A stretch of DNA of 64,000 bases. Source: Candidatus Latescibacterota bacterium (GTDB lineage: Bacteria > Latescibacterota > UBA2968 > UBA8231). Position numbers and translations under genes: made by a program. The stretch spans positions 2,624,001 through 2,688,000 of the forward strand of contig CBDETK010000013.1 of the NCBI GenBank assembly GCA_965242865.1, given 5' to 3'. Positions 2 to 58,033 of this stretch are shown in pieces. The notes under the pieces are model-generated. The model saw nothing but the letters and a program-made list of their open reading frames with translations, was not told the origin of the DNA and searched no databases. Positions within the stretch are counted from its first letter, which is position 1. The number at the start of each line of letters is the position of its first letter.

Positions 2-394
2 GGCGCGGTGGCCGGGGACTTTGACGACGATGGCCGCTTAGACCTGTTCGTCACCAACCTCAACGGCCGGCCCTCCCTGCTGCACAACCAGACGACCGCT
101 GACCACCACTGGCTCGGCCTGCGCCTTGTGGGCGCGGGAAAAAACCGCGAGGCCGTTGGTGCGAAGGTCGTATTGTGGAGCGGCGGTCAAAAGCAGCGGC
201 GGGATGTGCTCTGCGGCGAGAGCTTCTTGGGCAGCGGCGACCGGCGCGTGCATTTTGGCTTGGGCGCAACGGGCCGAGCGGATTCGCTGCACATCTATTG
301 GCCGAGCGGGGTGCTGCAACGGCTAATTGACTTGCCGATTGATGAGTATGTGAGGGTTGAGGAGGGAGTTGATGGCGGCGTTGGAGTTTGGTAG
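2..394 (+). CDS. CRTAC1/ASPIC-UnbV family protein, 3' end (5' part outside window)
   Basis: FG-GAP motif GDFDDDGRLDLFVTN, then WLGLRLVG..NREAVGAKV..G.SFLG..RVHFGLG..IYWPSG, typical of the ASPIC/UnbV C-terminus. Confidence 0.9.
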   Translation, partial: GAVAGDFDDDGRLDLFVTNLNGRPSLLHNQTTADHHWLGLRLVGAGKNREAVGAKVVLWSGGQKQRRDVLCGESFLGSGDRRVHFGLGATGRADSLHIYWPSGVLQRLIDLPIDEYVRVEEGVDGGVGVW

Positions 395-522
395 GTTGTC
401 CGTCGATAGCACTGAATGGCGGTATAGTTGAGGATAGTAGGGCCGCTGTTCCGACACACTTTCACTTCGTGTGACCAGATGCCCCGGTTGCTAGTACACA
501 TAAACTATTGGAGATGATTAAG

Positions 523-1917
523 ATGTTCGAGCGTTTGCGAATACAAAACTTTAAGGGGTGGCAGGATACTGGCCGCATTCGCATGGCTCCTATTACTCTT
601 TTCTTTGGTGCCAACAGTTCCGGCAAGTCCAGTATCGGCCAGTTTCTGATGATGCTAAAGCAGACGGTTGAATCACCAGATAGGAAGGCGGTGTTTCACC
701 TTGGTGGGAAAAACACAGCGGTCCAACTCGGCTCCTATCGGGAAATGGTTTTTCGCCGCGATCCAAAAAAGGAAATCTCGTTTGAGTATCAGTGGTCGCT
801 TCCCAACAGCTTAACAATTAAGGATCCTATTTCAGAGCGATCACTTAAAGGAGATGCGTTAGTTTTTGCAGCAGAAGTAGGATTGAGCGACTCAAATTTG
901 CTTGAAGTTAAAAAAACCAAATACCGAGTTTTTAAGGAAGACTATCAGTCGCTGTCCGTTGGGTTAGAAGAAGGCGATAAACGGAATTACGCGGTATCCG
1001 CGGAGGGGTACGATCTCGTCAGAAAAAGAGGACGTGGCTGGCCTCTAAGAGGCCCTGTGCGCTTCTATGGCTTTCCAGACGAGGCGGTTACCTATTACCA
1101 GAACGCTGAGTTTCTTCAGGAACTGAACCTAGAGCAAGAATTGTTGTTCAAATCCATCTACTATCTTGGCCCGCTTAGAACAAGGGCCGATAGACTTTAT
1201 ACATGGACTGGTATCACGCCTGAAAGCGTTGGTTTTGCAGGCGAAAATACCGTAGCAGCCATTCTTGCTGCACGAGACCGTAGAATTAGCTTGGGGCACC
1301 GGAAGCGAACCAAGCGATTAGAGGAGATCGTCTCCTCCAAGTTGGAGAAGATGGGATTGCTCGAGAAATTCAAGGTCGATTCCATCCCTGAGCAAAGGCA
1401 AGAATATGAAGTCAAGGTGCACGCGAAAGGCTCAGCGGATTGGGTAGATCTCCCAGATGTCGGCTTTGGCATTTCGCAGGTACTCCCAGTGCTCGTGCAG
1501 TGTTTTTACGCTCCACCGGGATCAATAATCATCATGGAGCAGCCAGAAATCCACCTTCACCCCAGTGCTCAATCGGCCCTAGCCGATGTGATGATTGATG
1601 TGATCAATTCCAAGGAAAATGGTAGAGACAGAAATATCCAGTTGATCATTGAAACCCACTCCGAGCACTTTTTGCGACGCCTACAAAGGAGAATTGCAGA
1701 AGGTGTCATAGATGAGGCAACAGTGTCGGCTTACTTCGCCGATATTAACAAATTTCCCGCCAAGTTAGAGCCTCTACAAATAGACGAGTACGGCAACATT
1801 CAGAACTGGCCGGAACATTTCTTTGGCGATGAGATGGGGGACATTCTCGCGCAGACTGAGGCAGGCATAAAAAGGAGGATGCAATCACAACAAGACACTC
1901 GTGGATTGGAGAAATAA
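523..1917 (+). CDS. ABC-type (AAA_15/AAA_21) ATPase with DUF3696-like C-terminus
   Basis: N-terminal LRIQNFKG, Walker A GANSSGKS, degenerate signature DVGFGISQVLP, Walker B/D-loop IIIMEQPEIHLHP, H-loop IETHS, C-terminal DEYGNIQNWPEHFF; GGAG RBS before ATG 523; AT-richer than flanks. Confidence 0.9.
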   Translation: MFERLRIQNFKGWQDTGRIRMAPITLFFGANSSGKSSIGQFLMMLKQTVESPDRKAVFHLGGKNTAVQLGSYREMVFRRDPKKEISFEYQWSLPNSLTIKDPISERSLKGDALVFAAEVGLSDSNLLEVKKTKYRVFKEDYQSLSVGLEEGDKRNYAVSAEGYDLVRKRGRGWPLRGPVRFYGFPDEAVTYYQNAEFLQELNLEQELLFKSIYYLGPLRTRADRLYTWTGITPESVGFAGENTVAAILAARDRRISLGHRKRTKRLEEIVSSKLEKMGLLEKFKVDSIPEQRQEYEVKVHAKGSADWVDLPDVGFGISQVLPVLVQCFYAPPGSIIIMEQPEIHLHPSAQSALADVMIDVINSKENGRDRNIQLIIETHSEHFLRRLQRRIAEGVIDEATVSAYFADINKFPAKLEPLQIDEYGNIQNWPEHFFGDEMGDILAQTEAGIKRRMQSQQDTRGLEK

Positions 1918-1919
1918 AA

Positions 1920-2445
1920 ATGAAATTCGTCATAGATACCAATGTCGCCATTGTAGCTAATGGCCGAAAGGACGATCTTCCGTCTGATATTCCAAAGAAT
2001 TGCATTAATGAATCTATCGAGAAAATTAAAAATGTCACAGAAAAAAATTATTGTCTCGTTGTTGATGCTGCTGACGAAATTTTCTATGAATACATAAAGA
2101 GCCCCTACCTTTCTTTGAGAGGTCAGCCCGGTATTGGGGACAAATTTGTCAAATGGGTACATGATCATCAATTTAATCCAAGTAAAGTGGCCCGCGTAGA
2201 AATCACCAAAAGCGGAAGCTCTTACAAAGAATTTCCCGACCACCCTGATTTGCATAACGTTTGATTCTTCTGATCGCAAGTTCGTCGCTGTCGCAAATGC
2301 CCATCCTGAAAAGCCGCCTATTTTACAGGCAACGGATAGCAAGTGGTGGGGATGGAAGGATGCTTTGGCCGAAGTTGGAATTACGGTCTGTTTTCTCTGT
2401 CAAGAATTTGTTGAGAAAAAGTACGCGGATAAGATGGGTGCGTGA
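1920..2445 (+). pseudogene. PIN-domain RNase, split by a +1 frameshift near 2259
   Basis: Starts MKFVIDTNV (PIN first Asp). Frame 0 stops at ..AAC GTT TGA (2264); the +1 frame continues FDSSDRKFVAVANAH..ILQATDSKWWGW..KMGA to TGA 2445, which overlaps the next start (GTGA). Confidence 0.8.
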
Positions 2446-3131
2446 TCGACGCTTTCTTTAAGTTCCCCTCAACGCCACACTTGGCACTCCTCGGCGACGC
2501 CGATGTCAGGAATGATAAGGTCTTGACGGTAGCCGAGCGGAATGAATTTTTGTGCCGTGAGTTGGTCGTCGAAGAAAAAATCGATGGGGCCAATCTCGGC
2601 ATTTCGTTTGATCTCGACGGAAATATTCGCGCCCAAAATCGGGGCGCGTACTTGGAGCTTCCCCGGTCAGGACAATGGAAAAAGCTCTCGGAGTGGTTGA
2701 CGCCGAGAACAGAGACGTTTTTTGAACATCTGTTTGACCGTTACATCCTTTTTGGGGAATGGTGCTATGCTCGGCACACGGTCTTCTACGACCGGCTACC
2801 GGACTGGTTTCTCGGATTCGACGTCTATGATAGGGAAACGGACCGATTTTTATCTTGCGACCGACGCAATGAGCTCTTTCGCTCTATTCGCATTTGTCCC
2901 GTCCCGACCGTCAGACGCGGTTGCTTCACGCTCTCAGAACTGAGCGAACTTCTATTGCAGTCAATGCTCGGCGAGCACCCCGCAGAAGGCATTTATCTCC
3001 GGTCTGATCGCAGTGGCTGGTTGGTTCAGAGGGCCAAGTTGGTTCGTCCCGCCTTTGTTCAGTCAATAGAGCAGCACTGGTCTCGTAAGGACATTGCGCC
3101 CAATCGGTTGAAGTGGGAGGTTCGGACATGA
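2442..3131 (+). CDS. ATP-dependent RNA ligase family protein (Rnl2-like nucleotidyltransferase)
   Basis: Motif I EEKIDGAN, motif III LFGEW, IIIa FLGFDVYD, IV EGIYL, V RAKLV; N-terminal KFPSTPHL. Confidence 0.85.
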   Translation: MIDAFFKFPSTPHLALLGDADVRNDKVLTVAERNEFLCRELVVEEKIDGANLGISFDLDGNIRAQNRGAYLELPRSGQWKKLSEWLTPRTETFFEHLFDRYILFGEWCYARHTVFYDRLPDWFLGFDVYDRETDRFLSCDRRNELFRSIRICPVPTVRRGCFTLSELSELLLQSMLGEHPAEGIYLRSDRSGWLVQRAKLVRPAFVQSIEQHWSRKDIAPNRLKWEVRT

Positions 3132-3171: not shown

Positions 3172-3409
3172 ACTTTGACGACGATGGCCGCTTAGACCTG
3201 TTCGTCACCAACCTCAACGGCCGGCCCTCCCTGCTGCACAACCAGACGACCGCTACCCACCACTGGCTCGGCCTGCTCCTTGTGGGCGCGGGAAAAAACC
3301 GCGAGGCGGTCGGCGCGAAGGTCGTATTGTGGAGTGGCGGTCAAAGGCAGCGGCGGGATGTGCTCTGCGGCGAGAGCTTCTTGGGCAGCGGCGACCGGCG
3401 CGTGCATTT
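3172..3409 (+). repeat. 238-bp direct-repeat remnant of the ASPIC/UnbV gene (copy of 18-255)
   Basis: Ungapped match to 18-255 at offset 3154, about 8 substitutions by eye; truncated at ..RVH. Confidence 0.95.
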
Positions 3410-3449: not shown

Positions 3450-3658
3450 GAAGGTGGTTTTTTATAAACCGTTGCGTCGTCTTTTTTTCTTATATCAAGC
3501 TCGTATGAGCATCAATCACAATTTCGCCTACCTTATAGCCATTTTTATCTTTCAGGGGCACCCGCCAGATACGATAGCGATCATCTACTTCTGGAAGTCC
3601 AAACTGAATCGCATTGTCGAGATCAATATCTTTTAGATAATTCACAGAAACAACAGTC
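3450..3658 (-). pseudogene. AT-rich gene fragment, possibly the N-terminus of a site-specific DNA methyltransferase
   Basis: Minus frame reads NYLKDIDLDNAIQFGLPEVDDRYRIWRVPLKDKNGYKVGEIVIDAHTSLI*EKKTT; no start, in-frame stop; family call is from recollection only. Confidence 0.4.
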
Positions 3659-3681: not shown

Positions 3682-5178
3682 CTAGCGGCGATACTGGTCG
3701 AGCGTCCCTCGTCTCGGATCGAAGGTCGTAGCGTGGTTCCACGAGGCGTCGTGCTGGTGCATCACGTCCCGGATTAGGCGACGGCGATAGAGGCTGTCGA
3801 GATTGTCGGCGGCCATTTTATCGGGGTCGAAGTGGTCTAAAATCAGCCCGCGTAAGTGCGTCTCAACTGCGGCGTACTCAGCCTCCCCGGCGAGATTGTT
3901 CCACTCGCCGGGATCGTTCTCCAAATCAAAAAGCTGTGGCTGGTGGCCGTGGATGTAATTGTATTTGAACCGGTCCTCGCGGACCATGATGCAGGGGGCA
4001 CCCACGGCCTCGTGGGCTTGGGCGAAGATGGGGCGTCCCGCTTGCTGGCCCTCAATAATTGGCAGGAGGCTGGTGCCATCGTGGGGCAAGCGCGCCTCGG
4101 CACCGGCTAATTCGCAAAAGGTCGGCAGCAGGTCGAGGAGTGAGGTCGGCGTCTCAATGGTGGCACCGGCCCGCCACTGGTCGGGGAAGCGGACGATGAG
4201 GGGAACTCGGCAGGACCACTCGTAAAAACAGCGTTTCTGCACCATCTCCTTTTCGCACAGCATGTCGCCGTGGTCGGAGGTAAAGACCACAACCGTGTTG
4301 TCGAGCAGGCCCGTTTGCTCCAAAGTCGCCAGCAAACAACCGACCTTGTCGTCGAGGTACGTCACCAAGCCGTAGTACGCGCGGCGCAGGCGGCGCAGAC
4401 TTGCGGGATCGCGCAAGTTGAAGCGGCGGGTGCCGTGGTAGGTATTGAGCCAGCGATCCATCGCCGAGTAGGTCTCGTCGAGGTGAGCCGGGAATTCGGG
4501 GATGGCAATTTCGGCGTCGGCGTAGCGGTCCCAGTGCGCTTGCGGCGGATGGAACGGCTCGTGTGGGTGGTGGAAGGAAGCGCAGAGGAAGAAGGGGGCG
4601 TCGCCGCGTTGAGCGCGGAGGTACTCGACGGAGCGGAAGAGCGTTTCTTCGTCGTAGCTGAGGGCGTCGTGCCAGAAGTTGACGCGCACGGCTTGGCCGG
4701 TGTAGCCACCAGCGTTGTACGTGGGTCGGTTGCCCATGACCTCTTGGTAGTTATCTCCCTTGGTCTCCTTGATGCGGATCCACTCTTCCTTGACCCACGA
4801 AAAGTCGGGCGGGTAGATGTCGGTCGTCAGCCGGCGGTGGAAGCCGTGTAGTTGGTCTGGGCCGACAAAGTGCATCTTGCCCGAAAGCACGGTGTCGTAC
4901 CCAGCGTCGCTGAGGTAGTGGGCGTATGACGGCACATCCGCGGCCAAGAGCGCGCCGTTGTCCCAAGCACCGATCGCGGAGGCGTGGCGTCCGCTGGTGA
5001 TGCAGGCGCGGCCTGGGGCGCACAAGGGGAACGGAGTGTAGGCCGCGTCAAAGCGGACGCCTTCGGCGGCGAGGCGATTCAAGTGCGGCGTCTGGACGAC
5101 CGGGTGGCCGTAGGCTCCGGTCAGAGCGGCGATGAGTTGATCGGACATGATGAAGAGGATGTTGGGGCGGGCGGGCAT
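3682..5178 (-). CDS. Cys-type sulfatase (choline-sulfatase-like)
   Basis: PNILFIMSDQ, CAPGR (CxPxR), GKMHF, TSDHGDML, QLFDLENDPGE. Confidence 0.93.
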   Translation of the reverse strand: MPARPNILFIMSDQLIAALTGAYGHPVVQTPHLNRLAAEGVRFDAAYTPFPLCAPGRACITSGRHASAIGAWDNGALLAADVPSYAHYLSDAGYDTVLSGKMHFVGPDQLHGFHRRLTTDIYPPDFSWVKEEWIRIKETKGDNYQEVMGNRPTYNAGGYTGQAVRVNFWHDALSYDEETLFRSVEYLRAQRGDAPFFLCASFHHPHEPFHPPQAHWDRYADAEIAIPEFPAHLDETYSAMDRWLNTYHGTRRFNLRDPASLRRLRRAYYGLVTYLDDKVGCLLATLEQTGLLDNTVVVFTSDHGDMLCEKEMVQKRCFYEWSCRVPLIVRFPDQWRAGATIETPTSLLDLLPTFCELAGAEARLPHDGTSLLPIIEGQQAGRPIFAQAHEAVGAPCIMVREDRFKYNYIHGHQPQLFDLENDPGEWNNLAGEAEYAAVETHLRGLILDHFDPDKMAADNLDSLYRRRLIRDVMHQHDASWNHATTFDPRRGTLDQYRR

Positions 5179-5182: not shown

Positions 5183-6166
5183 TTAGCTTTCGGGTGAAAG
5201 GGATTTCTTTACGTAGGCAACCGACTGCTCGAACTGCTCCAGTTCATAAGCAACCCGCACAGCGGCACTCGCGCCGCGCTCGTGCGGCGTCTGCCAATCG
5301 TCGGGATCGTCGGCCGCCTGATGCAGGGTGCGGATGGCATGTATGGCTTCGTCGAGAGGTCGCTCGGGAAAGGTCGCCCACCAGTCCGCTTCCAACAGGC
5401 GAATGTGGCGGGCGACGCTCGCGCCGAGTTCAATGCAGCCCTCGACCTGCGGCACCGCGCGGTTGAATAGCGCGATTATCTCCGGCCAGTTGACGACCCC
5501 GTCGCCGATGGCACAGCGCTTGAGGCGATAGCCCGAGGGCGTGGGGTGGACCGCGTAGTCCTTGAGGTGGACGTGTTTGAGGATGGGCAAGATGCGCTCG
5601 GCAAAGGATCGGGGATGCTCGCCGACGGCAAGGGCATTGCCTACGTCCATGGTGACGCCGAGTTGCGGGCTGCCGACTTTTTCGCACAGCGACAGCAATT
5701 CCCACGAGCACAGATCCTGGTGGTTTTCAATGCCCACTGGAATACCGTATTCCTCGGCAAGTGGCATGACTTCTTTGAAGGGCTGTACCAAGGCTTCGAT
5801 GTAAGCTCGCATCCCCTCGGCGCCATACTCGGTGCGGTTGCCTTCGACGAGGCGGCTGACAGTGGTGCGCACGGCGCGAGCCCCGGTTTGGTGCGCGGTC
5901 TCAATGGCTTGGCGCAGCGGCGCGATGTCTGCGGCGTAGTCGTCGCCGCCGGTGTCCAAAAACAGATTGAGACCCGCACGCGTCTCGGCAAAAACCGCCC
6001 GCTGCTCGGGCGAGCAGTCGCCCAGCCATTGGGCGGCGAATTCGACGCTGTGGAGGCCCGCGTCCTTGGCCAAGCGCGTCAGGCCCTCGGGGGTGTGGGG
6101 GGCCAGGGCGCGACCGGCTTCGCGGTGGGCGCCGGTAAAGCTCCAAGCGCAGAGGCCGATTTTCAT
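5183..6166 (-). CDS. sugar phosphate isomerase/epimerase (AP endonuclease 2 TIM barrel)
   Basis: MKIGLCAWS start (ATGA overlap with hisS-remnant stop), IENHQD, MDVGN, HVHLKD, IGDGVVNW. Confidence 0.88.
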   Translation of the reverse strand: MKIGLCAWSFTGAHREAGRALAPHTPEGLTRLAKDAGLHSVEFAAQWLGDCSPEQRAVFAETRAGLNLFLDTGGDDYAADIAPLRQAIETAHQTGARAVRTTVSRLVEGNRTEYGAEGMRAYIEALVQPFKEVMPLAEEYGIPVGIENHQDLCSWELLSLCEKVGSPQLGVTMDVGNALAVGEHPRSFAERILPILKHVHLKDYAVHPTPSGYRLKRCAIGDGVVNWPEIIALFNRAVPQVEGCIELGASVARHIRLLEADWWATFPERPLDEAIHAIRTLHQAADDPDDWQTPHERGASAAVRVAYELEQFEQSVAYVKKSLSPES

Positions 6167-6361
6167 GCGCGGCTCGTTTCGGTCAACTGGTCGAGAGGGA
6201 CGTTTTGCTCGACGCCGGTGGATAGGGTTTTGATCCGCACCTGACCGGCGGCCCATTCGTCCGGGGCCAGCAAGACCAGCCGAGCGGCCCCGAGCTGGTC
6301 GGCGCGGCGAAAGGCCCAGCGGACTTTTTTGTCTTCGAGGACCAAGTCAACCGAGCGGCCG
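6163..6361 (-). pseudogene. duplicated 3' end of hisS (anticodon-binding domain tail)
   Basis: 5968-6361 matches 8289-8682 (394 bp, about 3 substitutions); encodes GRSVDLVLEDKKVRWAF..TETSRA. Confidence 0.95.
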
Positions 6362-6388: not shown

Positions 6389-6985
6389 TTAGTTTTCCAC
6401 GCTTTCAAATAGATCCAAGTGCTCACCTGTGCCAACGAGTCTCCCATGTAAATGCCGAATGTCAATCACTGCCCCAAAGCGAATGAATATCTTTTCAAAG
6501 TGCTCGTACTGCGGCCCCCAATAGATCAGTGCGCAGGACATCGGGGCACCCTTACCGCCATCCTTCCCGTTTACGAGGAAGCGCAGCCGGGTGTCGTAGA
6601 GAAATGCAACCGCAGTAGCAGTGCCAAACACGTATTGTTTCCAGTGGCGAGTATTCGTGGCGACGGGCACTAGAGCGATCACTTCAACACCATGTTGTAC
6701 GTGAGCTTCGGTGCATTTTCGGAGCCAATCTCGAATCGTGGTGCCTCTCTCGCGGTCCCTGCCGTATGGAGGATTGACGAAAACGGTAGGATAATCCCAC
6801 GACGCCGACAACCCGTCAATCTCAGGCAGGGAGTACTCTACAGTCGCCCTCACGATAGAATGGCGATTGGCGCATGGGTCCAACGCGACTGATCCGGCAA
6901 AAAACTCTCGTATCGCGTTAACGTACTTTGGAGGGGTACACCAATGTTGGCTTAGCACTTCGGCATTGTTGCGTCCTGCGGTCAT
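6389..6985 (-). CDS. small DNA N6-adenine methyltransferase (phage Dam-like family)
   Basis: W.TP, ALDPCA (motif I-like), DGL...W, VFVNPPYG (motif IV), ALVPVATNTRHW, RLRF. Confidence 0.88.
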   Translation of the reverse strand: MTAGRNNAEVLSQHWCTPPKYVNAIREFFAGSVALDPCANRHSIVRATVEYSLPEIDGLSASWDYPTVFVNPPYGRDRERGTTIRDWLRKCTEAHVQHGVEVIALVPVATNTRHWKQYVFGTATAVAFLYDTRLRFLVNGKDGGKGAPMSCALIYWGPQYEHFEKIFIRFGAVIDIRHLHGRLVGTGEHLDLFESVEN

Positions 6986-6999
6986 GCCTAGCCGTCCTC

Positions 7000-19792: not shown

Positions 19793-19797
19793 TTGGT

Positions 19798-50356: not shown

Positions 50357-50365
50357 GCCGGCCTC

Positions 50366-50844: not shown

Positions 50845-50886
50845 TATCCTCGCCTAAGATGCTGATCGGAGCGGATTATTCAAACG

Positions 50887-51110: not shown

Positions 51111-51118
51111 CCCGTTGC

Positions 51119-53278
51119 TCAGAGAATGGGGGACTCTGATTGTTTTAGCAATCCGTCAATCTGCTCGCGGTCCTTGAGTTCCTCGCTAGGTGTGTAGCCG
51201 GGCCATAGCTGTCTGTAGAGCGACGCGACGTAATCCTCGGTCTCCAAGGGCAACTTTCGCTTGCTAGCTACTAAGGCGAACAACTTCAATTCCAAAATTT
51301 TGTAGACACGGTCATGTTCTTTCAGCGACAACGCGGAGATCGCTATCGCGGTCTGCTCTGCTTCATCGATTGCGTCTAACAAGAGCCATAGCTGACCCCA
51401 AAACCGCAACGTTTTAAGGTCGAATTGCCCTCCATCGCCAAAACGCTCCGAGGCGGCGTGGATGAATTCTGTGGTGATCATCTCGTCGTAGTGTGCATCC
51501 GTCCCACCTTCGCGAGAACTCTTGAGACTTCGCTGCTCAAGCAGAGCCCATAAGGCAAGAGGCTCGACTCCTAAGTGCCGTACTCGATCCAGTAGCCATG
51601 CGTCGTTTGGCTCGCCAAACTCGATGACAAAGCGGGCCGCAAGCTCCGATGCGACCGAGGCTGCGGGATGGCTAGGAAGGTGTTGTCCGGCGAAATGGCA
51701 GTGGTCCCACAGGATCTCGGCGAGAGTGCGGACCGATACAGGATTGATCGTGTGGCCGAGTTCGTTTATTACTGGGATTGCGTGGAGTGCGACCAAGAAC
51801 CAATGTTGCGCTGCTCGGTCAGCATAGATGAACGCTTCATAATTATCCTCAGTATCCCATACACTCAGCGGCAACTCCCGGCACTGAGCCGAGACCCACT
51901 CCGGCAAATCAAGCTCCTCGTGAGACAGCACAAGGGCTATGCCGAGACTGCTGAACCACTCGCGTTGGTGCCAGGCACGCCAGTCCAAAAATAGATGATT
52001 CTGTTCCAACTGCTTGGCAATGTGCTGACCGTGCAAGTCGAAAGCCACTTGGGCGATCTCAGCGGCCCTCGCAGAATCGTCTTCGCGGATCAACCAAGCA
52101 ACATCCGCAATGTGACGGGTCCAAGTCGTTCGAGGAGTCAGGCATAGGCCAGCCCTAAGTTCGTCAAGCAGATTGTCGGACCATGACTGGCAAACGAGGC
52201 GTGAGAGTAGTTCCGTACATGCCCTCTCAAGTTGTTCAATCCGGGGCGGCTTCTCATGGCTCCCGCGTTGATTCAGCCCGTAAGGGGCATTGCTGAGCAC
52301 CTCGCCGACCCAGCGTACGCACACAAGAGGATCAAGCACGGCTAGCCGATCAACTAAGTCTTTAAGGAGAGCGGCAGCGGCGGCATCAAGGTCATCCTGA
52401 GGAAGGCAGAGTTCGGTTCTCCAGCTATATCGATCTATACCCATACCCATTTCACCCATTCGATCTGAGTATCGAAGGTCTTCGTCCAACTTATTGACGG
52501 TGTTCAGCGTATGTACGATCGCAAGCGCAACCAAGGCATCGCATGAATCCTTAGTGATCCACTCTAGGGTCTGACGATGGTTCAAGGAAAGGTCCGCGGC
52601 GGTCATGCGGTTGGCCGCCCGTGCCTGAATCACCGGATGATCGAGCTCCTCAATCAGGGTTTCAAAATGCTTGGGCCGCAACTTGATGACGAGTTCGAGC
52701 AGATTGCCCACGGCAGGATAGATCTCTAGAAAGCCATGGTTGTCTAGGTGCTGAAAAGTTTCTAGCCTTCCTTCGCGCTTTATAGAATCTTTCAGGATTT
52801 TAGCATTGACAGAATCTTGTGCAGTAAAGCCGGGGCAACGGGCCACATCGAGAATCTGGTCTTGATCGCAGAGCTTTTTCAACACCGTAAGTGTCGCCTC
52901 AACCAAAGAGTTAATCTCCTGAGAGGACCAGCGGCAACGAATGAGACGTACTGCTAGGTCAACGTCAATCGAGCCGACAGCCCAGATTGCAATCTTCCCG
53001 CGCTCGGTCCGGATCTCCTCTAGGATCAGGGCTGCAACTGGCTCGAACAATTCAGACTTGAGCAATGGTCGATCCCCATACGACTCAAACCAACCACGGA
53101 TCTCCGTGATGGCTCGATCCTGCTCTATAGAAGAAATAACATACTTTCTAGTGATTGGCTCGATCAGTTCGTAAGTCGACTGCCCCGTTAAGGGAGATTC
53201 ACCCGAGCCGAAGATCCGCCAAATAACGGCTTTTGCGCTGTCAGGCAGGGAAATACTAGGTATGCTGTTGCTGACCAT
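51119..53278 (-). CDS. hypothetical 719-aa, likely alpha-helical protein
   Basis: Long ORF, TGATG-coupled to the upstream HTH-PLD gene; no motif recognised. Confidence 0.8.
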   Translation of the reverse strand: MVSNSIPSISLPDSAKAVIWRIFGSGESPLTGQSTYELIEPITRKYVISSIEQDRAITEIRGWFESYGDRPLLKSELFEPVAALILEEIRTERGKIAIWAVGSIDVDLAVRLIRCRWSSQEINSLVEATLTVLKKLCDQDQILDVARCPGFTAQDSVNAKILKDSIKREGRLETFQHLDNHGFLEIYPAVGNLLELVIKLRPKHFETLIEELDHPVIQARAANRMTAADLSLNHRQTLEWITKDSCDALVALAIVHTLNTVNKLDEDLRYSDRMGEMGMGIDRYSWRTELCLPQDDLDAAAAALLKDLVDRLAVLDPLVCVRWVGEVLSNAPYGLNQRGSHEKPPRIEQLERACTELLSRLVCQSWSDNLLDELRAGLCLTPRTTWTRHIADVAWLIREDDSARAAEIAQVAFDLHGQHIAKQLEQNHLFLDWRAWHQREWFSSLGIALVLSHEELDLPEWVSAQCRELPLSVWDTEDNYEAFIYADRAAQHWFLVALHAIPVINELGHTINPVSVRTLAEILWDHCHFAGQHLPSHPAASVASELAARFVIEFGEPNDAWLLDRVRHLGVEPLALWALLEQRSLKSSREGGTDAHYDEMITTEFIHAASERFGDGGQFDLKTLRFWGQLWLLLDAIDEAEQTAIAISALSLKEHDRVYKILELKLFALVASKRKLPLETEDYVASLYRQLWPGYTPSEELKDREQIDGLLKQSESPIL

Positions 53279-54987
53279 CAGGCGATCTCCTTAACAAAAC
53301 AGTTTGTGTTCTTGGATCCGATGACCATTGACCACAGCGACTCCGCCTCGGCGCGATACACACCGTAGGGGTGGCTAGAAAAGGTAACCCCCTCCTTATG
53401 CCAACCATTAAAGGAATGGGTGATGACGATCTCGCGTTTGGGCATTATCAAGTAACGATCGTGAAACCCAGGACCTTCCGAATTCTGTTCGAGGAACACG
53501 CGAATATTAACATGACTCGTTAGTTGGTCGGGGAGATTCGACCACCATGTACTCCACCATGTGACTTTCGCCTCTTTCGCGCATAGGATTCGCAACGGCC
53601 TGCCATTGGTGGCTTCGAATATATTAAGGTATAGCTTCTTAAGATTGTCTCTCTCCGGTTTGGGTATGTCCATGAAGTAGGGGTCGGCAAGATAAATCGG
53701 TGCCGTTTGATCGGCATCTTGACGCAGAAGATAGGTAAAGTGCTGGATAGCCCGCTCGAATTCCACGGGTCTAAAACGCACGAGATTACCCTCTCGGCGT
53801 GCGATATTCTCCCGCTCGTAAACCTGACGATCAAGCCATTGTCGTCGGATTCCTCTGTCGAGTTCGGCACTGTCTTGGTCAGTTTGGACGTTGATTGTGG
53901 AGACGAAACCTGATGGATTGACCTCGTGGGTGAAGCTGCTTTTGCGTTCGCGGAGCTGCAGCGTTGGGCCGGACTTGATCTCCATGCGAATACCGACCTC
54001 CATGAGCAGAAACGCCTCCATCAAGTCGACACACTGTCCGTCAGCAGTCCGGAGAATCTCAAAGCCGATGTGATCAACATCCGATGCAAACTCAATCACC
54101 TTCTGGCCTAGAGTGACCGGAACTTCTCGTCGTAGCACCCGATCTCCACTGTGGCTAGCCCAGACCGTGGCTCGGTAGGCCCCGGACAGCAGTTCGTTCG
54201 CATCTACATGAAGCCTCAGCGTCCGGTTGCGATTCGCTGACAGATCACAAACAATTGCATCTTGGGCGGCGGCGATCATGAAGTTTCCAACCCGGTCTGG
54301 ACGGCGGTTGAGTGGGAAGCCCAGACGTGCGAGTTGAGGTAAGGCTTTGTTCTGAAGTGATTCAAGGATCTCCAGCCAGCGTTTGCGAGGCTCCACCGTG
54401 AAGCTCCAGTACTCGATTATCTCCGCACTGTGTCTTGAGAAGGGGCTACGCATTGAAGCATCGGCGAGCGGGCGGTCATCTCGATAAGCCCAGTGGCGGC
54501 GAGGGATGGGTTCCAAGGCATATTGAATTTCAAGGTCATCAATCCCCAGCGTACCCGAATCCAAGATTTGACCAACCAATGTGTAGCAGCATTCCCACGA
54601 CGCTTCTAAGGAAAACAGTCGGAGTTCATGTCCAAGGTCGATACTCGACCAAGTCTCGTCCGGTTCGCCAGCCCAAGGCCCTAGCGCATCCTGACGTCGG
54701 TGGCGTATGAGCGTGAACAAGTTGCGAAGCGGTGCGCTCGGCGAATGCCACGCCAATACCGTCATCCGAGCGGTTCGGCTCTCCATAGCCCCCGTCGTCA
54801 CCGGGGCGCGAGCCGGTAAATTGAAGGAAAGCCCGCGCTCGTGCGCCCAACGCATTGCTTCGTCAAGTGACACGGACACATTGCGCCCTTCCCTTCGCAC
54901 GGCCAAGTGCCCTCGATGAATGTGTTGGCGAATGTAGGTCTCGCTCTTATCCACGGAACGGGCTAACTCTGCAATCGTAATATACAT
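53278..54987 (-). CDS. N-terminal HTH + C-terminal PLD-like nuclease domain protein (VPA1262-like)
   Basis: MYITIAELARSVDKSETYIRQHIHRGHL (excisionase-type HTH); IYLADPYF..FHDRYLI..ITHSFNG. Confidence 0.7.
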   Translation of the reverse strand: MYITIAELARSVDKSETYIRQHIHRGHLAVRREGRNVSVSLDEAMRWAHERGLSFNLPARAPVTTGAMESRTARMTVLAWHSPSAPLRNLFTLIRHRRQDALGPWAGEPDETWSSIDLGHELRLFSLEASWECCYTLVGQILDSGTLGIDDLEIQYALEPIPRRHWAYRDDRPLADASMRSPFSRHSAEIIEYWSFTVEPRKRWLEILESLQNKALPQLARLGFPLNRRPDRVGNFMIAAAQDAIVCDLSANRNRTLRLHVDANELLSGAYRATVWASHSGDRVLRREVPVTLGQKVIEFASDVDHIGFEILRTADGQCVDLMEAFLLMEVGIRMEIKSGPTLQLRERKSSFTHEVNPSGFVSTINVQTDQDSAELDRGIRRQWLDRQVYERENIARREGNLVRFRPVEFERAIQHFTYLLRQDADQTAPIYLADPYFMDIPKPERDNLKKLYLNIFEATNGRPLRILCAKEAKVTWWSTWWSNLPDQLTSHVNIRVFLEQNSEGPGFHDRYLIMPKREIVITHSFNGWHKEGVTFSSHPYGVYRAEAESLWSMVIGSKNTNCFVKEIA

Positions 54988-55015
54988 ATAGGCATCTCTC
55001 TGATAAGCGACAAGT

Positions 55016-55058
55016 GTAATTTACTAATGTAAATTACGATGTAACTACAATCTGTCAA
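55016..55058 (-). promoter_or_regulatory. sigma70-like promoter with overlapping inverted-repeat operator
   Basis: Minus strand TTGACA(55058-55053)-16 nt-TAATTT; perfect IR GTAATTTAC-TAAT-GTAAATTAC at 55016-55037. Confidence 0.6.
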
Positions 55059-55192
55059 GTCCCCAGTAGCCGAACGTGAATCGGGGCTTGCCGGTCTGGC
55101 CTGCTCGACGCGGATTGCCCCCACATAGTGTCGTCCGTCTTTCCTCACCAGCGGCCCAACCGATGATTTCCTCTTGATCATTAGCCAAAATC

Positions 55193-55205
55193 AGACATAT
55201 TGTCT
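55193..55205. promoter_or_regulatory. short inverted repeat upstream of abiEi
   Basis: AGACA-TAT-TGTCT; AbiEi proteins are known to autoregulate through promoter IRs. Confidence 0.35.
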
Positions 55206-55230
55206 CTATATGAAATTAAATGGAGTCAAT

Positions 55231-55836
55231 ATGTCTAGATCTAAGAAAAAACGTCCTGAAGAAATCTTCCGCAGGTACGGCGGCCAACTTCGGATGAGCG
55301 AGGCCATCGCACACGGGATTACACGCTACATGCTATATGCGCTCAAAGACAGGGGCGTCATCGAGCCGGTCAGCAGAGGCATCTATCGATTGCGGGAACT
55401 ACCTCCGCTCGGCAACCCTGATCTGGTCGCGGTGAGCCTTCGCTTCCCCAACGCCGTCGTTTGCCTCGTCTCTGCGCTGGCTCACCATAGCATCACGACT
55501 CAGATTCCCCATGAGATTTCTGTGGCGGTGCCAAGAGACTCGCGGGTTCCGTCACTCGACTATCCTCCCATCCGAGCCCACAGATTCTCGCAGGCAGCAT
55601 ACAAGTCCGGCATCGAAACGCCCCTAATTGATGGTGTGCCCGTTAAAATCTACCGTTGCGAGAAAACCCTAGCCGACTGCTTCAAGTTTCGCAACAAAAT
55701 TGGTATGGATGTGGCGCTAGAAGCGTTGAAGCTCCACCAGACGCGAAACGGGTTCAATCTCGGCGAACTGCTCAAATACGCCAGAATTTGTCGGGTAGAA
55801 AAGGTGATGTGGCCCTATTTAGAGGCACTGGTATGA
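55231..55836 (+). CDS. abiEi: type IV TA antitoxin AbiEi
   Basis: N-terminal wHTH (RGIYRL), VCLVSALAHH.ITTQIP, EKTLADCFKFRNKIG. Confidence 0.9.
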   Translation: MSRSKKKRPEEIFRRYGGQLRMSEAIAHGITRYMLYALKDRGVIEPVSRGIYRLRELPPLGNPDLVAVSLRFPNAVVCLVSALAHHSITTQIPHEISVAVPRDSRVPSLDYPPIRAHRFSQAAYKSGIETPLIDGVPVKIYRCEKTLADCFKFRNKIGMDVALEALKLHQTRNGFNLGELLKYARICRVEKVMWPYLEALV

Positions 55837-56735
55837 CGTCTCCTCGCAATGCGTCCGCGTCTGTCCGGCAACGCCTCCTCAATCGGGCCAGAAGTGAACG
55901 ACGGCCATTTAACGAAATGCTTCAATACTTCGCCATGGAGCGATTCCTCTACCGGCTATCCCAATCCGCTCATGCCCATCGATTTGTGCTCAAGGGCGCG
56001 TTGATGCTGAGGGTTTGGGACTCACCGGAATTCCGTCCGACCATGGACATCGACTTACTTGGCAGGACTCGCAACGAAGAAGCCGATATCGTCTCTCAGA
56101 TGCGGGACATCCTAATGGTCAATGTGGAAACGGACGGACTTGCGTTCGATCCGGATTCTATCCACACCGAGCGGATCACCGAAGGCGCGGATTACGACGG
56201 GATCAGAATTCGGTTCCTAGGCGTATTGGGATCCGCGATAATTCACATGCAGATCGACATTGGCTTCGGTGATGTCGTGTATCCCGAACCGAAAGAGTTG
56301 GATTTTCCGACCATATTGAACTTCTCGGCACCGCGATTGTTCTGTTACAGCCGCGAGAGTTCCATCTCGGAGAAGGTCGAAGCCATGGTCAAGCTAGGTA
56401 TGCTAAACAGCCGGATGAAGGATTTCTACGACATCTGGTTGCTGTCTCGGCAGTTCGACTTTGAGGGCCCCAAGTTGGTCCAAGCCATTCGGCGGACCTT
56501 TGAACGGCGAAGCACGGTGCTACCCGCGGAAATCGAGGCATTCTCTCAGTCTTTCATCGATGCCAAGCAGAGCCAATGGGCGGCGTTCCACAACAGGCTC
56601 CAGCAGGATCACGTGCCTGCCTCGTTCGGAGAAATTACGGCTTCGGTGAGTGGATTTCTGCGGCCCGTTGTCGCGGCTCTTTCCTCCGGGAACTCTAGGC
56701 CGACCGACTGGATCGCACCCGGCCCATGGACCTGA
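55833..56735 (+). CDS. abiEii: type IV TA nucleotidyltransferase toxin AbiEii
   Basis: ERFLYRLS, FVLKGA, RPTMDIDL, IDIGFGD, EKVEAM, SRMKDFYD; ATGA overlap. Confidence 0.92.
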   Translation: MTSPRNASASVRQRLLNRARSERRPFNEMLQYFAMERFLYRLSQSAHAHRFVLKGALMLRVWDSPEFRPTMDIDLLGRTRNEEADIVSQMRDILMVNVETDGLAFDPDSIHTERITEGADYDGIRIRFLGVLGSAIIHMQIDIGFGDVVYPEPKELDFPTILNFSAPRLFCYSRESSISEKVEAMVKLGMLNSRMKDFYDIWLLSRQFDFEGPKLVQAIRRTFERRSTVLPAEIEAFSQSFIDAKQSQWAAFHNRLQQDHVPASFGEITASVSGFLRPVVAALSSGNSRPTDWIAPGPWT

Positions 56736-56770
56736 GCCGGTATCCTTCCACCAAAGCAAGAAGACGTGTA

Positions 56771-56798
56771 CGTCGGATAGCTCCCGCGCTCGGGATAC
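56771..56798. repeat. 28-bp exact copy of an internal part of the relE/parE gene (48538-48565)
   Basis: CGTCGGATAGCTCCCGCGCTCGGGATAC at both positions. Confidence 0.92.
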
Positions 56799-56800
56799 GT

Positions 56801-56862
56801 TGTAATTTTGAACCGTTACTTCAAATTATCATGTAATTTTGAATCGCTATTTCAAATTTACA
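56801..56862. promoter_or_regulatory. two tandem 31-bp palindromes upstream of the DUF4143 ATPase
   Basis: TGTAATTTTGAA-N7-TTCAAATTATCA and TGTAATTTTGAA-N7-TTCAAATTTACA. Confidence 0.7.
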
Positions 56863-56878
56863 CGTTAATTTTAAGTCC

Positions 56879-58033
56879 ATGTACAAACGATCGCTGGACC
56901 TCCCCGCGTCCGGCACCGAGACGTTTTTCCTCTGGGGGCCGCGACAGGCGGGCAAAAGCACCCTGCTAAAACACCAGTACGCCGACGGCCTGTGGCTCGA
57001 TCTCCTAAAGGCCGACGAGTTCAGACGGTACGTCGCCAACCCAGAGTTTTTGCGTCAAGAAATCGAGGCGACCGGGTTCGACGCCAGTCGCCAGATCGTC
57101 ATTGACGAGATTCAGAAAGTACCGGCCCTGCTCGACGAGGTGCATTGGCTGCTCGAAAACCGAGGGTTGAGCTTCGCCCTTTGCGGCTCCAGTGCCCGCA
57201 AGGTGCGGCGCGGAGGGGCCAACCTGCTCGGCGGGCGAGCCGTGCGCTATCAACTGCACGGGCTGACGGCGCGGGAACTCGGCTCAGACTTTGACCTCAC
57301 CCGGCTCCTCAACCACGGCTACCTGCCCCGGATGTACGCCAACGCCCGTCCCGCCCGGTTGCTCGACGCGTATGTCGCCGACTATCTCAAGGAGGAAATC
57401 GCGGCCGAAGGACTGGTCCGCAACTTGCCCGCGTTTGCCGGGTTTTTGAACGCGGCCGCTCTAGGCGATACCGAAATGGTCAACTTCTCCAATATCGCAC
57501 GGGAGTGCGGCGTCTCCAGTCACACGGCGAGAGGCTACTACGAGATTCTCGAAGACGCGCTGCTCGGACGCTGGTTGCCCGCCTTCCGCCGGCGTCCCAA
57601 GCGGCGAGTGGTTGCCGCGCCTAAGTTCTACTTTGCGGATGTCGGAGTGGTCAACCGCCTCGCCCGCCGAGGGCAACTGCTGGTAGGGTCGGCTCTATAC
57701 GGCAAGGCATTTGAGAACTGGGTGTTCCACGAGTTGGCCGCGTTTGCCGACTATCAAGCATTCGATGGCGATCTAACGTATTGGCGTCTAGCCGGCGGGA
57801 CCGAGGTTGATTTCATCTTGGGCGACATGCAGCTAGCGGTTGAAGCCAAGGCGAGCAATCCCATCGTCAGCAACCACTTGAAAGGGCTGCGTAGCCTAGT
57901 GAAGGATCATCCGGGCGTCGGCCGGCGAGTTGTCGCGTGCCTTGAACCCCGCGCCCGGCGCACTGACGACGGGATCGACATCCTGCCCGCAGCCACCTTC
58001 GTCCAAATGCTCTGGCGCGGCGACCTCGCCTAA
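56879..58033 (+). CDS. AAA_14 ATPase with DUF4143 (wHTH and PD-(D/E)XK-like tail)
   Basis: GPRQAGKS, IDEIQKVP, LCGSS, KFYFADVG, AFENWV, EVDFIL..AVEAK. Confidence 0.92.
   Translation: MYKRSLDLPASGTETFFLWGPRQAGKSTLLKHQYADGLWLDLLKADEFRRYVANPEFLRQEIEATGFDASRQIVIDEIQKVPALLDEVHWLLENRGLSFALCGSSARKVRRGGANLLGGRAVRYQLHGLTARELGSDFDLTRLLNHGYLPRMYANARPARLLDAYVADYLKEEIAAEGLVRNLPAFAGFLNAAALGDTEMVNFSNIARECGVSSHTARGYYEILEDALLGRWLPAFRRRPKRRVVAAPKFYFADVGVVNRLARRGQLLVGSALYGKAFENWVFHELAAFADYQAFDGDLTYWRLAGGTEVDFILGDMQLAVEAKASNPIVSNHLKGLRSLVKDHPGVGRRVVACLEPRARRTDDGIDILPAATFVQMLWRGDLA

Follow-up and report, generated by a model that had tools for sequence, protein, structure and literature searches.

Low-GC defence cargo between duplicated gene ends in a sponge-associated Latescibacterota genome: insertions with long target duplication

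How do defence genes come to lie between two diverged copies of a neighbouring gene's end when no recombinase accompanies them? This question is raised by the window, a 64,000-nucleotide stretch of DNA analysed here from a sponge-symbiotic Latescibacterota whose metagenome-derived assembly has 6.8% estimated contamination. A self-blastn comparison combined with a repeat search of the window recovered, at the same coordinates, every repeat pair listed in an earlier sequence-only reading. Those that bracket low-GC cargo are unique direct repeats of 85-394 bp (94.6-99.2% identity), and they copy the ends of adjacent genes. Four bracketed blocks had been proposed; three indeed hold low-GC defence cargo within gene-end repeats, namely HEC-03 with an RNA ligase, a Dam-like methylase with a 371-aa gene, and AbiE with two unknown genes, whereas the fourth consists of propeller paralogues. 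GC content inside versus flanking the three blocks is 0.486 versus 0.612, 0.528 versus 0.589 and 0.539 versus 0.593, and their insert units measure 3154, 2321 and 6041 bp. Structurally, these loci belong to the insertions with long target duplication, which are already known and not new. We propose, with a probability of about 0.6, that they were made by the host's own recombination, with no element-encoded recombinase. The pattern has been known but mechanistically unexplained, and is extended here to cargo other than restriction-modification (RM) genes.

The first block begins in an ASPIC/UnbV gene cut off by the window start, so that its 3′ end alone is included (2..394, + strand; Pfam UnbV_ASPIC, 1.4e-18). 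Copy 1 of the direct repeat R238 lies within this intact gene (18..255, +), while copy 2 (3172..3409, +; both by self-blastn) is a truncated piece of ASPIC that gives way to unrelated sequence, its Pfam UnbV_ASPIC match covering model positions 1-34 of 68 only. The copies align without gaps over 238 bp at 96.6% identity; four of the eight mismatches are synonymous and four non-synonymous, and comparison with four relatives places the derived change on copy 2 at five of the eight. Cargo 1 (508..3131, +; GC about 0.49) encodes the HEC-03B ATPase (508-1917, +; PADLOC 4.1e-130; Pfam AAA_15/AAA_21/DUF3696), HEC-03A (1920-2264, +; PADLOC 2.7e-23) and an RNA ligase (2442-3131, +; Pfam RNA_ligase). 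Conservation of the ASPIC gene in relatives stops at window position 366, where all genus matches end and where the X16 and X1 contigs depart from the window sequence. The relative G001 has a duplication of this ASPIC end too, but its span differs (146 bp; window 232-377), as does the insert that it encloses (~830 bp), and G012 carries a donor-type allele without the repeat, in which ASPIC is followed by HEC-03-like genes and an RNA ligase.

The second block occupies the hisS-isomerase-sulfatase locus, with resident alleles of a sulfatase gene (3682..5178, −; Pfam Sulfatase, 1e-49) and a xylose-isomerase-like TIM-barrel gene (5183..6256, −; Pfam AP_endonuc_2, 1.7e-24). The direct repeat R394 comprises the 5′ 289 bp of the isomerase gene and 105 bp of the hisS 3′ end; copy 1 (5968..6361) and copy 2 (8289..8682), the latter contiguous with hisS (8484..9761, −; Pfam tRNA-synt_His, 7.1e-40), match over 394 bp at 99.2% and are the only two copies genome-wide. 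Cargo 2 (6389..8115, −) consists of a Dam-like N6-adenine methylase (6389-6985, −; Pfam Dam, 3.5e-13; PADLOC orphan MTase, 1.4e-12) and a 371-aa protein (7000-8115, −) with no family match in NCBIfam, Pfam or PADLOC. A further repeat, S92, is formed by the final 81 bp of the sulfatase gene together with 11 bp beyond it (copy 1, 3671-3762) and by a sulfatase 3′ scrap that has kept its ancestral position next to the 371-aa gene (copy 2, 8198..8289). Its 92-bp copies are 94.6% identical, with two synonymous and three non-synonymous mismatches, and the alignment gains about 9 bases if a 3-nt indel is permitted. Divergence within this one unit is unequal, at 5.4% for S92 and 0.8% for R394. An ORF at 8209-8577 (−; 8209 = 3682 + 4527) joins 96 isomerase codons in frame to 27 sulfatase codons. 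A 183-bp element (3469..3651; second copy at C13:3451289-3451471, 95%) adjoins the sulfatase in the closest relative as well.

This cargo is not newly arrived DNA: the Dam-like and 371-aa genes are old sulfatase neighbours across the genus. G012, G002, G009, G004, G006, G014 and G032 have the ancestral gene order (Dam, 371-aa gene, sulfatase, isomerase), with the 371-aa gene downstream of the sulfatase. In the closest relative (G031) and in the X16 strain the sulfatase has neither gene next to it, so the resident lineage was probably without them. Empty sites in relatives had been suggested as a check, and the dominant X16 strain, a sister strain, provides an exact one: position 5967 is joined to 8289, skipping exactly 2321 bp. 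The arms therefore mark a gain/loss polymorphism.

The AbiE block is part of a defence hotspot (43028..58029; Pfam and PADLOC) between a C26 peptidase gene and a metallophosphatase gene. It encodes an IetA-like AAA protein, a PDDEXK_4 protein, ParE, an NsnB-like ATPase, 719-aa and 569-aa unknowns, AbiEi/AbiEii and a DUF4143 ATPase; between the same flanks, relatives carry from 87 bp (G009) up to about 20 kb (G011), with modules shuffled. All three nested repeats described at 47-57 kb are present. The 85-bp pair (95.3%) is formed by the upstream region of the DUF4143 ATPase gene with its first 7 bases (copy 1, 50760..50844) and a second copy (56801..56885) ahead of the intact gene (56879-58033); in G014, G010 and G012 this element directly adjoins the right flank. 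The 6-kb unit between the copies (50845..56800) contains an AAA gene 3′-end scrap (50991-51106; pair with 46998-47123, 126 bp, 77.8%), the 719-aa and 569-aa genes, AbiEi/AbiEii and a ParE scrap (56771-56798; pair with 48538-48565, 28 bp, 100%). In G003 an intact ParDE comes after the same AAA scrap, the 719-aa and 569-aa genes and AbiE. Mobile elements, or double crossover within the flanking regions, are the usual explanation for turnover in defence-island hotspots. Like such hotspots, the 43-58 kb island is variable across the genus while its two flanking core genes stay the same, and modules have been exchanged among species; it differs from the usual ones in its internal repeats and gene scraps, which appear to record one-ended or single-crossover additions.

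The propeller pair, previously read as homology arms, is of another kind. Propellers A (16553-18154, −) and B (27133-28779, −) are paralogous genes inside a single 14-kb insertion (14601..28736, −), not its arms; Pfam also identifies there an amidohydrolase and an fn3 protein, beside a 2067-aa repetitive adhesin (−) and a 295-aa ORF. They match in segments, 16555-17192 / 27135-27772 at 86.6% and 17411-18111 / 28036-28712 at 83.6%, gapped. In the relatives compared, for example G001, ~40 bp separate the HAD gene (13914-14600) from the NAD_binding_7 gene (28719-29426). The insertion is a mosaic with segments matching C13:5117008-5118569 and C13:5314388-5318214 at 95-99%. The genome has many local arrays of tandem paralogues.

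Bracketed cargo recurs outside the window. Screening contig C13 for local repeat pairs at least 80 bp long, at least 93% identical and spaced 0.4-40 kb apart yielded 88, and 20 loci were annotated. Foreign cargo is bracketed likewise at 14 of them, including HindIII, EcoRII, type III, McrBC, MmeI, VapC and MazF; three are mere tandem paralogues. RM genes or components occur at 7 of the 20 (MmeI, Eco57I-like, type III, McrBC with a methylase, HindIII, EcoRII, methylase fragments), toxin-antitoxin genes at two (PIN; PemK/MazF), other nuclease or ATPase cargo at three (HNH, DUF4143, HD), non-defence cargo at three and family-less cargo at two; a two-component system is among the bracketed genes. 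Inner GC is at least 0.04 below the flanks at 19 of 24 loci (the 20 annotated, three in the window and one unannotated). Many repeats end at or a few bases from a stop codon, and both flanking genes are usually intact. Outside block 2, most cargo is low in GC and missing from all genus relatives. As at the ASPIC gene, a donor-type allele without the repeat exists for the HindIII case, the same gene being followed by HindIII RM in G012 and G005, and a uvrA-like 5′ scrap accompanies the EcoRII unit.

Insertion with long target duplication of RM units was reportedly described by Nobusato et al. in Gene in 2000. Furuta, Abe & Kobayashi (NAR 2010; PMC2853133) define such loci by a direct target duplication >30 bp, an insert <20 kb without mobile-element genes, a repeat that is not high-copy, R and M homologues inside the insert, and an empty site in a related genome whose single copy aligns to both repeats. 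Repeats there are imperfect and unique and range from tens of bp to about 420 bp (e.g. 417/423 and 384/412 in Table 3), and the low-GC inserts carry all RM types, an orphan methylase or an mcrA/HNH gene. The present loci share the length of the duplication, the size and low GC of the insert, the lack of mobility genes and the range of RM-related cargo. Within the window the duplications measure 238, 394 and 85 bp, elsewhere 94-410 bp; inserts outside the window are of 670-10,328 bp, and each repeat has one or two genome copies. Single-copy empty sites exist for block 2 in X16 and for the McrBC locus L031 in 13 relatives, each with one clean repeat copy; none of the relatives examined has the flanks of L028 or of L038 side by side, so these two loci have no clean empty site. 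Both R and M homologues lie within the insert at L028, L038 and L044, whereas in the window block 2 holds a methylase with the 371-aa protein, and HEC-03 and AbiE are not RM systems. Because repeats span start or stop codons, neighbouring genes stay intact both in the published cases considered and here. Unlike those cases, ours come from a phylum off the paper's list, number at least 17 in a single genome, and include toxin-antitoxin pairs, HEC-03, AbiE, a DUF4143 ATPase and non-defence genes. The inserts here also hold donor-locus gene scraps, and the repeat mismatches are mostly synonymous, a bias measured in this genome only.

The earlier impression that integrase, transposase and tRNA att site are lacking was borne out. 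Pfam profiles gave no match to integrase or transposase families among 48 window ORFs, nor to integrase, transposase or resolvase families among 126 ORFs at the 20 outside loci, and ARAGORN found 0 tRNA genes in the window. The whole genome has three Phage_integrase (tyrosine-recombinase) matches, none in the window, no Resolvase/serine-recombinase match, one sub-threshold rve match on another contig and one weak Y1_Tnp match. No common sequence motif or hairpin was found in 18 junction sets inspected; the window has a single weak inverted pair. The lack of a common junction motif, together with the different ASPIC span in G001, argues against site-specific recombination. We rejected a DNA transposon (no transposase family; repeats of varying length, 85-410 bp), an integrase-borne island at a tRNA or gene 3′ end (no integrase, no tRNA, differing ASPIC spans) and an integron (no Phage_integrase match in the window, no common motif or hairpin at junctions). 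The loci resemble integrons in tandem cassette build-up at one place, but have no intI, attI, attC, common recombination site or common promoter. The integron-like behaviour suggested earlier left no sign of capture, expression or excised circles; in X12, Logan contigs, from which rare variants are dropped, showed neither an excised circle nor a within-sample empty site.

The slight differences between copies, also noted before, look allelic and not like decay. Over 14 pairs we counted 36 synonymous, 18 non-synonymous and 8 non-coding mismatches (codon positions 12/8/34). The synonymous share of 36/54 (67%) compares with an expected 0.24-0.29 (p ~1e-8 to 5e-11) and with 0.38 under a mixed decay model (p = 2e-5); within the window alone the excess is weak (8/16; p = 0.04 versus random change, p = 0.23 versus the mixed model). 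Mostly synonymous mismatches, together with scraps from other allele arrangements, favour homology-anchored import of sister-strain alleles, although such an excess could also follow in-situ duplication with later allele exchange between the intact copy and the population. The "allele stacking" of the sequence-only reading thus comes close to what we favour, without its integron analogy.

In our model, DNA from a sister strain would bring another version of the locus: a gene end, then defence cargo, sometimes with scraps of neighbour genes. It would pair with the resident chromosome at the common gene end in one homologous crossover, while an illegitimate joint would attach its other end "too early", by a few hundred bases; integration of a circularised fragment by a single Campbell-type crossover would be topologically equivalent. 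Either route would give the observed layout of resident gene end, cargo and second, diverged gene-end copy, with the divergence of the copies corresponding to the donor-recipient allelic distance. Later RecA-type deletion between the repeats, possibly as circles, could produce the observed presence/absence polymorphism, the direction of which we infer, and repeated rounds could leave nested scraps. Homology-facilitated illegitimate recombination, whose described outcomes reportedly mostly delete recipient DNA between anchor and joint, is reported from naturally transformable bacteria by de Vries & Wackernagel in 2002 and by Prudhomme et al. in 2002. Our loci share with it an anchor-like homologous repeat, a presumed illegitimate joint, foreign DNA beside a conserved gene and no recombinase; here, by contrast, the joint would lie upstream of the anchor's end, giving a duplication, and transformation of this organism is putative. 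ComEC and DprA, sought as a check on competence, are present, but they also occur in most control genomes, so their presence is no proof of it. A donor strain was identified for none of the loci.

An unlikely alternative is that the target itself was duplicated: cargo alone would enter staggered breaks 100-400 bp apart, perhaps made by restriction enzymes, and gap filling would copy the target, leaving copies at first identical that then drift. Several pairs are indeed 98-100% identical, repeats span start and stop codons as in the published cases considered, and this route is favoured there for RM units, the Discussion suggesting a common RM property such as double-strand breakage (PMC2853133). 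VapC, MazF, HEC-03, AbiE and two-component cargo nevertheless come without a restriction enzyme, inserts hold scraps from another arrangement of the same locus, and S92 and R394 diverge unequally in one unit. The 67% synonymous share, against 24-38% expected, points to import of an alternative allele and not to a break by the RM system itself.

Slightly less probable still is an origin within the lineage, by tandem segment duplication and complementary deletions in the copies, with no DNA from another strain. Block 2 could be derived in this way from Dam, 371-aa gene, sulfatase, isomerase and hisS by one duplication and two deletions; deletions fusing the isomerase and sulfatase genes occur in the closest relative (L050), and the genome is rich in paralogue arrays. 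Such an origin sits poorly with the absence of both cargo genes from the sulfatase in G031 and the X16 strain, with low-GC cargo missing across the genus at most other loci, with the unequal divergence inside one unit and with the synonymous bias.

Very improbable are remnants of integrase-borne islands that targeted gene 3′ ends, brought a replacement end and have since lost their integrase genes. The elements e14 and phage 21 supply such an end at icd, and the many repeats ending at or near a stop codon look alike. Yet an integrase is found at 0 of the 20 outside loci and in no window block, the genome's three tyrosine-recombinase matches stand without a serine-recombinase match, the window has no tRNA gene, each repeat has a unique sequence of its own and no core is common to them, and the ASPIC duplication spans differ (G000 versus G001).

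Depths were taken from Logan contigs of public runs, in which summed contig depth does not equal copy number; X12 may be the sample behind the genome and X1 belongs to another study. In X12 the depth is 298.6 for R394, 165-184 for hisS, 160 for the cargo and 181-186 for isomerase-sulfatase, and in X1 it is 28.4 for R394 against 11.6-11.7 for the other three, so that in two studies the repeat alone stands at about twice its flanks. That the assembler joined two co-occurring strain alleles in tandem, which the sequence-only reading named as a refutation, is thus hardly credible despite the metagenomic origin, the estimated contamination and the several strains visible in the runs, since merged strains would give hisS the summed depth. 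Contig C13 is 5.6 Mb long, the small contigs are not alternative haplotypes (a single alignment of at least 500 bp to C13), and the cargo-repeat joint 6361|6362 is bridged by X12 contig record 14.

The window lies in a 5.6-Mb contig (C13) of an assembly of 6.0 Mb in 13 contigs, and the public runs containing window sequence carry sponge-metagenome or host-organism labels. The 6-Mb genome (G000) abounds in genes for RM, toxin-antitoxin and other defence systems, yet almost lacks transposase matches. Self-blastn and a repeat search of the window recovered every repeat pair in which a sequence-only reading had seen cargo bracketed by duplicated ends of neighbouring genes. They comprise direct repeats of 238 bp (18-255 and 3172-3409, 96.6% identity), 394 bp (5968-6361 and 8289-8682, 99.2%; exactly two copies in the whole genome) and 92 bp (3671-3762 and 8198-8289, 94.6%). 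Also recovered were two propeller genes (16555-18111 and 27135-28712, 84-87%, gapped) and three pairs at 47-57 kb: 50760-50844 with 56801-56885 (95.3%), 46998-47123 with 50991-51106 (77.8%), and an identical 28-bp pair at 48538-48565 and 56771-56798.

Between the 394-bp repeats, the cargo (6389-8115) encodes a Dam-like methylase and a 371-aa protein. Seven relatives (G012, G002, G009, G004, G006, G014 and G032; 85-91% identity) share the order Dam, 371-aa gene, sulfatase, isomerase, so that the apparent cargo has long been the sulfatase's neighbour, and the 92-bp sulfatase scrap joined to the 371-aa gene is a remnant of this order. We also placed Logan contigs of four public sequencing runs (X1, X12, X15 and X16) on window 1-10000. 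The dominant strain of X16, at depth 286 and with 56 differences in 2241 bases, has one contig in which 5967 runs straight into 8289, omitting exactly 2321 bp and leaving one repeat copy at the empty site; a loose end left of the sulfatase in the same run matched nothing anywhere in the window. The closest relative (segment L050 of genome G031, ~91% nucleotide identity) resembles this strain in that Dam and the 371-aa gene are absent, its order being hisS, isomerase, sulfatase and the element found at 3472-3651. Given the ancestral order in relatives and the arrangement in L050 and X16, the window therefore carries two tandem versions of the hisS-isomerase-sulfatase locus, one made up of hisS, an in-frame isomerase-sulfatase fusion (ORF 8209-8577), the 371-aa gene and Dam, the other of the last 105 bp of hisS, the isomerase, the sulfatase and the 3472-3651 element. 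The isomerase-sulfatase fusion of the closest relative (L050:4080-6188) arose by its own ~620-bp deletion (window 4425-5048) and is independent of the fusion in the window; with two such events, decay of this pair of genes seems to have recurred.

The cargo between the 238-bp ASPIC repeats (508-3131) has a GC content of 0.49, compared with 0.61 in the flanks, and encodes a candidate defence pair, HEC-03A (PADLOC, 2.7e-23) and HEC-03B (4.1e-130), together with an RNA ligase. Matches of the ASPIC gene with all relatives stop at position 366, where the X16 and X1 contigs also depart from it. Neither run covers the HEC-03B gene at 669-1336, and X16 has next to nothing over 669-2338; the RNA-ligase region 2418-3152 is present in X16 with 22 differences, and 1778-3130 in X1 with 26. 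The common departure point and the patchy coverage indicate that cargo at the ASPIC site varies between strains. Among the relatives, HEC-03-like genes (73-77%) and RNA ligase (87%) follow ASPIC with no repeat in G012. In G031, 3.6 kb of other DNA separates ASPIC from RNA ligase (94%), and G001 carries a 146-bp ASPIC duplication of its own (window 232-377) that encloses an insert of ~830 bp. The ASPIC and sulfatase-hisS blocks, adjacent in the window, lie 0.5-3 Mb apart or on separate contigs in every relative examined, which places a large rearrangement joint at 3410-3471.

The pairs at 47-57 kb fall within a 15-kb defence island (43028-58029) in which Pfam and PADLOC identified an IetA-like AAA protein, PDDEXK_4, ParE, an NsnB-like ATPase, two unknowns, AbiEi/AbiEii and a DUF4143 ATPase. 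Searches of NCBIfam, Pfam and PADLOC returned no family for the 371-, 719-, 411-, 220- and 295-aa proteins and a sub-threshold match for the 569-aa protein. Between the two genes that flank the island lie 87 bp and the DUF4143 gene in G009, 1.5 kb in G005 and ~20 kb in G011. In G003 an AAA 3' scrap is followed by the 719- and 569-aa genes, AbiE and an intact ParDE, an arrangement that explains the 126-bp and 28-bp repeats of the window as gene scraps. The 85-bp element (50760-50844 and 56801-56885), which lies 5' of the DUF4143 ATPase gene and may be an operator or promoter, contains an internal tandem duplication of ~29 bp (TGTAATTTTGAACCGCTACTTCAAATTA…); G014, G010 and G012 carry this element and precisely lack the DUF4143 ATPase gene.

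Such structures recur throughout the genome. A genome self-megablast for local direct-repeat pairs (at least 80 bp, at least 93% identity, 0.4-40 kb spacing) yielded 88 pairs on C13. Repeats present more than twice in the genome were set aside, and 20 loci with the 126 ORFs in and beside them were annotated; the low-copy pairs starting at 51963, 179899-181377, 700379, 725183, 735113, 1025119, 1267787, 1476069, 2228925, 2549940, 3172158, 3184070, 3208333-3218878, 3262873, 3963561, 5118566, 5403133, 5423493 and 5538082 were left unannotated. Seven of the 20 loci carry RM genes or components (MmeI with SIR2 and AAA_21, Eco57I-like, type III, McrBC with a methylase, HindIII, EcoRII, methylase fragments), two carry toxin-antitoxin cargo (PIN; PemK/MazF) and three other nuclease or ATPase cargo (HNH, DUF4143, HD); the remaining eight hold non-defence genes (3), no family (2) or tandem paralogues only (3). 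Inner GC was at least 0.04 below that of the flanks in 19 of 24 loci (the 20 annotated, three in the window and 5538082). Most repeats correspond to 60-320 bp at the end or start of a flanking gene, and in L027, L031 and L035 the repeat terminates exactly at the stop codon; no shared motif or microhomology was found among the 18 junction sets inspected.

Relatives supply both empty and alternative states of these loci. In 13 relatives the McrBC locus (L031) is cleanly empty, with one copy of the repeat and no cargo in any of them. The EcoRII locus (L044) joins two allele types found apart in relatives, one in which a T5orf172 gene adjoins the repeat (G010, G004, G006 and G001) and one in which a uvrA-like gene does (G012 and others). 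A conserved piece beside the EcoRII unit, for which tRNA identity was ruled out, looks by its sequence like the 5' end of a uvrA-like gene, and this scrap moves along with the unit. In G012 and G005 the gene that precedes the HindIII unit here is also followed by it (90-91%), with no repeat, and the site is empty in G001. None of the relatives examined has the two flanks of L028 or L038 next to each other, so neither locus has a clean empty site.

These loci are best read as products of host recombination, which adds to the resident locus a differing version from a sister strain. The incoming DNA would be joined by one homologous crossover within a shared gene end at one side and illegitimately at the other or, equivalently, a circularised fragment would enter by a single crossover, giving repeat, cargo, repeat. 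The repeats would then permit deletion, which fits the empty allele of X16, and nested scraps would record repeated rounds. What the data show directly is the anatomy, the scarcity of recombinases, the recurrence across the genome, the polymorphism and mismatches of allelic appearance, whereas the route of entry, the one-ended step and any circles are inferred. The sequence-only reading is partly supported: the stacking of alleles by homology that it put forward fits the ASPIC, hisS and defence-island blocks but not the propellers.

Mismatches between repeat copies bear on whether these are alleles or decayed duplicates. The analysis took in 14 pairs whose copies align free of indels and include part of an intact ORF. 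Excluded were pairs with indels (L026, L036, L040 and L043), with no ORF (the 85-bp pair, L032 and 5538082) or with no mismatch (L033). Of the 62 mismatches, 8 were non-coding; of the 54 in coding sequence, 36 were synonymous and 18 non-synonymous, with 12, 8 and 34 at codon positions one, two and three. Random change would give 24-29% synonymous (p ~1e-8 to 5e-11), and a model with one selected and one decaying copy ~38% (p = 2e-5); the three window pairs alone had 8 of 16 synonymous, for which comparison with random change gives p = 0.04 and with the mixed model p = 0.23. Polarised by four relatives, 5 of the 8 ASPIC mismatches are derived in the truncated copy (3 non-synonymous), pointing to some decay on top of allelic differences, and 2-3 in the intact copy; site 160 is polymorphic, X16 and X15 having the other copy's letter. 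This mixed picture fits allelic difference plus some decay. The synonymous excess could also come from later allelic recombination into the intact copy. We consider break-and-fill duplication less likely, because the mostly synonymous mismatches, together with donor-context gene scraps in the inserts, lean towards import. Tandem duplication followed by deletions is less likely too.

Decay of former integrase islands is a further, less likely explanation. As the sequence-only reading had claimed, the window showed no integrase, transposase or tRNA attachment site: none of the 48 ORFs scanned matched an integrase or transposase family, and the 64 kb contain no tRNA gene. Recombinase families were equally without a match among the 126 ORFs of the 20 annotated loci. 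The whole genome gave three tyrosine-recombinase matches, all to Phage_integrase (0.93, 1.46 and 4.99 Mb), no match to the serine-recombinase family Resolvase, one sub-threshold rve match on contig C8 and one weak Y1_Tnp match.

An assembly chimera of co-occurring strains, which that reading had named as its own possible refutation, is also less likely, judging by contig depth. In X12, which contains 0.97 of sampled words and is possibly the source sample, the repeat contig (8304-8666) had a depth of 298.6, compared with 165-184 for hisS, 160 for the cargo and 181-186 for isomerase-sulfatase; in X1, from another study, the repeat stood at 28.4 and the rest at 11.6-11.7, stoichiometry that is supportive rather than proof, since summed contig depth is not copy number. 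Two merged strains would have given hisS the summed depth, so the equal depths of hisS, cargo and isomerase-sulfatase, with the repeat alone raised, speak against a chimera. One X12 contig (6316-8227) spans the joint between repeat and cargo, and the cargo copy in X1 differs at 6 of 1783 bases. The small contigs, considered as alternative haplotypes and rejected, gave one alignment of at least 500 bp to C13 (C7, 1.4 kb). No excised- or empty-form joint was seen among the X12 contigs, but such contigs drop rare variants, so that this absence is uninformative either way; the presence of ComEC and DprA is similarly uninformative for competence, as 10 and 11 of 14 control genomes also have them.

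The structure matches an insertion with long target duplication, reportedly known since Nobusato et al. in 2000, and the genome holds an unusually dense new set of this known kind. We know of no established mechanism for it. PMC2853133 describes imperfect repeats of up to ~420 bp that span start or stop codons, without mobility genes and with empty sites in relatives; the cargo there covers every RM type as well as an orphan methylase and an mcrA gene, and naturally competent species account for most cases. The matches listed in a full-text literature search for 'long target duplication' included no sponge symbiont. Compared with these insertions, the present genome adds a new phylum and cargo beyond RM systems. 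With many independent examples, sister strains and near-complete relatives, it could decide between break-and-fill and homology-anchored import of neighbour alleles. Import, if true, would explain the turnover of defence islands in bacteria almost without mobile-element recombinases, and why repeat-bounded defence genes stay easily lost.

A broader and more tentative version of sister-strain import, to which we give a probability of roughly 0.3, is that in this sponge-symbiont lineage, nearly without integrases and transposases, host homologous recombination is the main cassette route. Sister-strain versions of a locus would stack in tandem via any shared gene end, and units (RM, toxin-antitoxin, HEC-03, AbiE and others) could loop out as one-repeat circles able to re-enter any strain with the same gene. 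The result would be a population-wide, recombinase-free pool, which would explain the mechanism of long target duplication. For the proposed integron-like function we found no supporting evidence.

The propeller pair, which had been taken for homology arms, has another origin. In the genus relatives compared, ~40 bp separate the HAD gene (13914-14600) from the NAD_binding_7 gene (28719-29426), so that 14601-28736 is one 14-kb insertion, containing an amidohydrolase and secreted, T9SS-tailed surface proteins. The two propellers are paralogues within it and are not built from neighbouring core genes. Mosaic segments shared at 95-99% with C13:5117008-5118569 and C13:5314388-5318214 suggest gene conversion among paralogous surface-protein loci. 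The insertion also includes eleven tandem 261-bp (87-codon) repeats (19775-22725, 67-82% identity) in the gene for a 2067-aa fn3/He_PIG/cadherin-like surface protein (19798-26001, minus strand).

Two dispersed sequences complete the inventory. A gene segment of ~1.3 kb (L045:1-1337; C13:2612001-2613337), from a family of eukaryote-like LRR/LDL-receptor-class-B repeat proteins, has at least 14 genome copies at 84-91% identity, some of which adjoin repeat-bounded loci such as L025, L036 and 5423493. A 112-bp element with a GC-rich hairpin (43057-43168; …CATTCCCGCGAACGCGGGAATC…) was considered as a common landing pad and rejected, being unrelated to the elements beside L038, L044 and window 3469-3651 and having no tie to the repeat-bounded loci. 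From its sequence it looks REP- or MITE-like, with 66 blastn matches genome-wide (76-100% identity) and a partial second window copy at 16473-16517.
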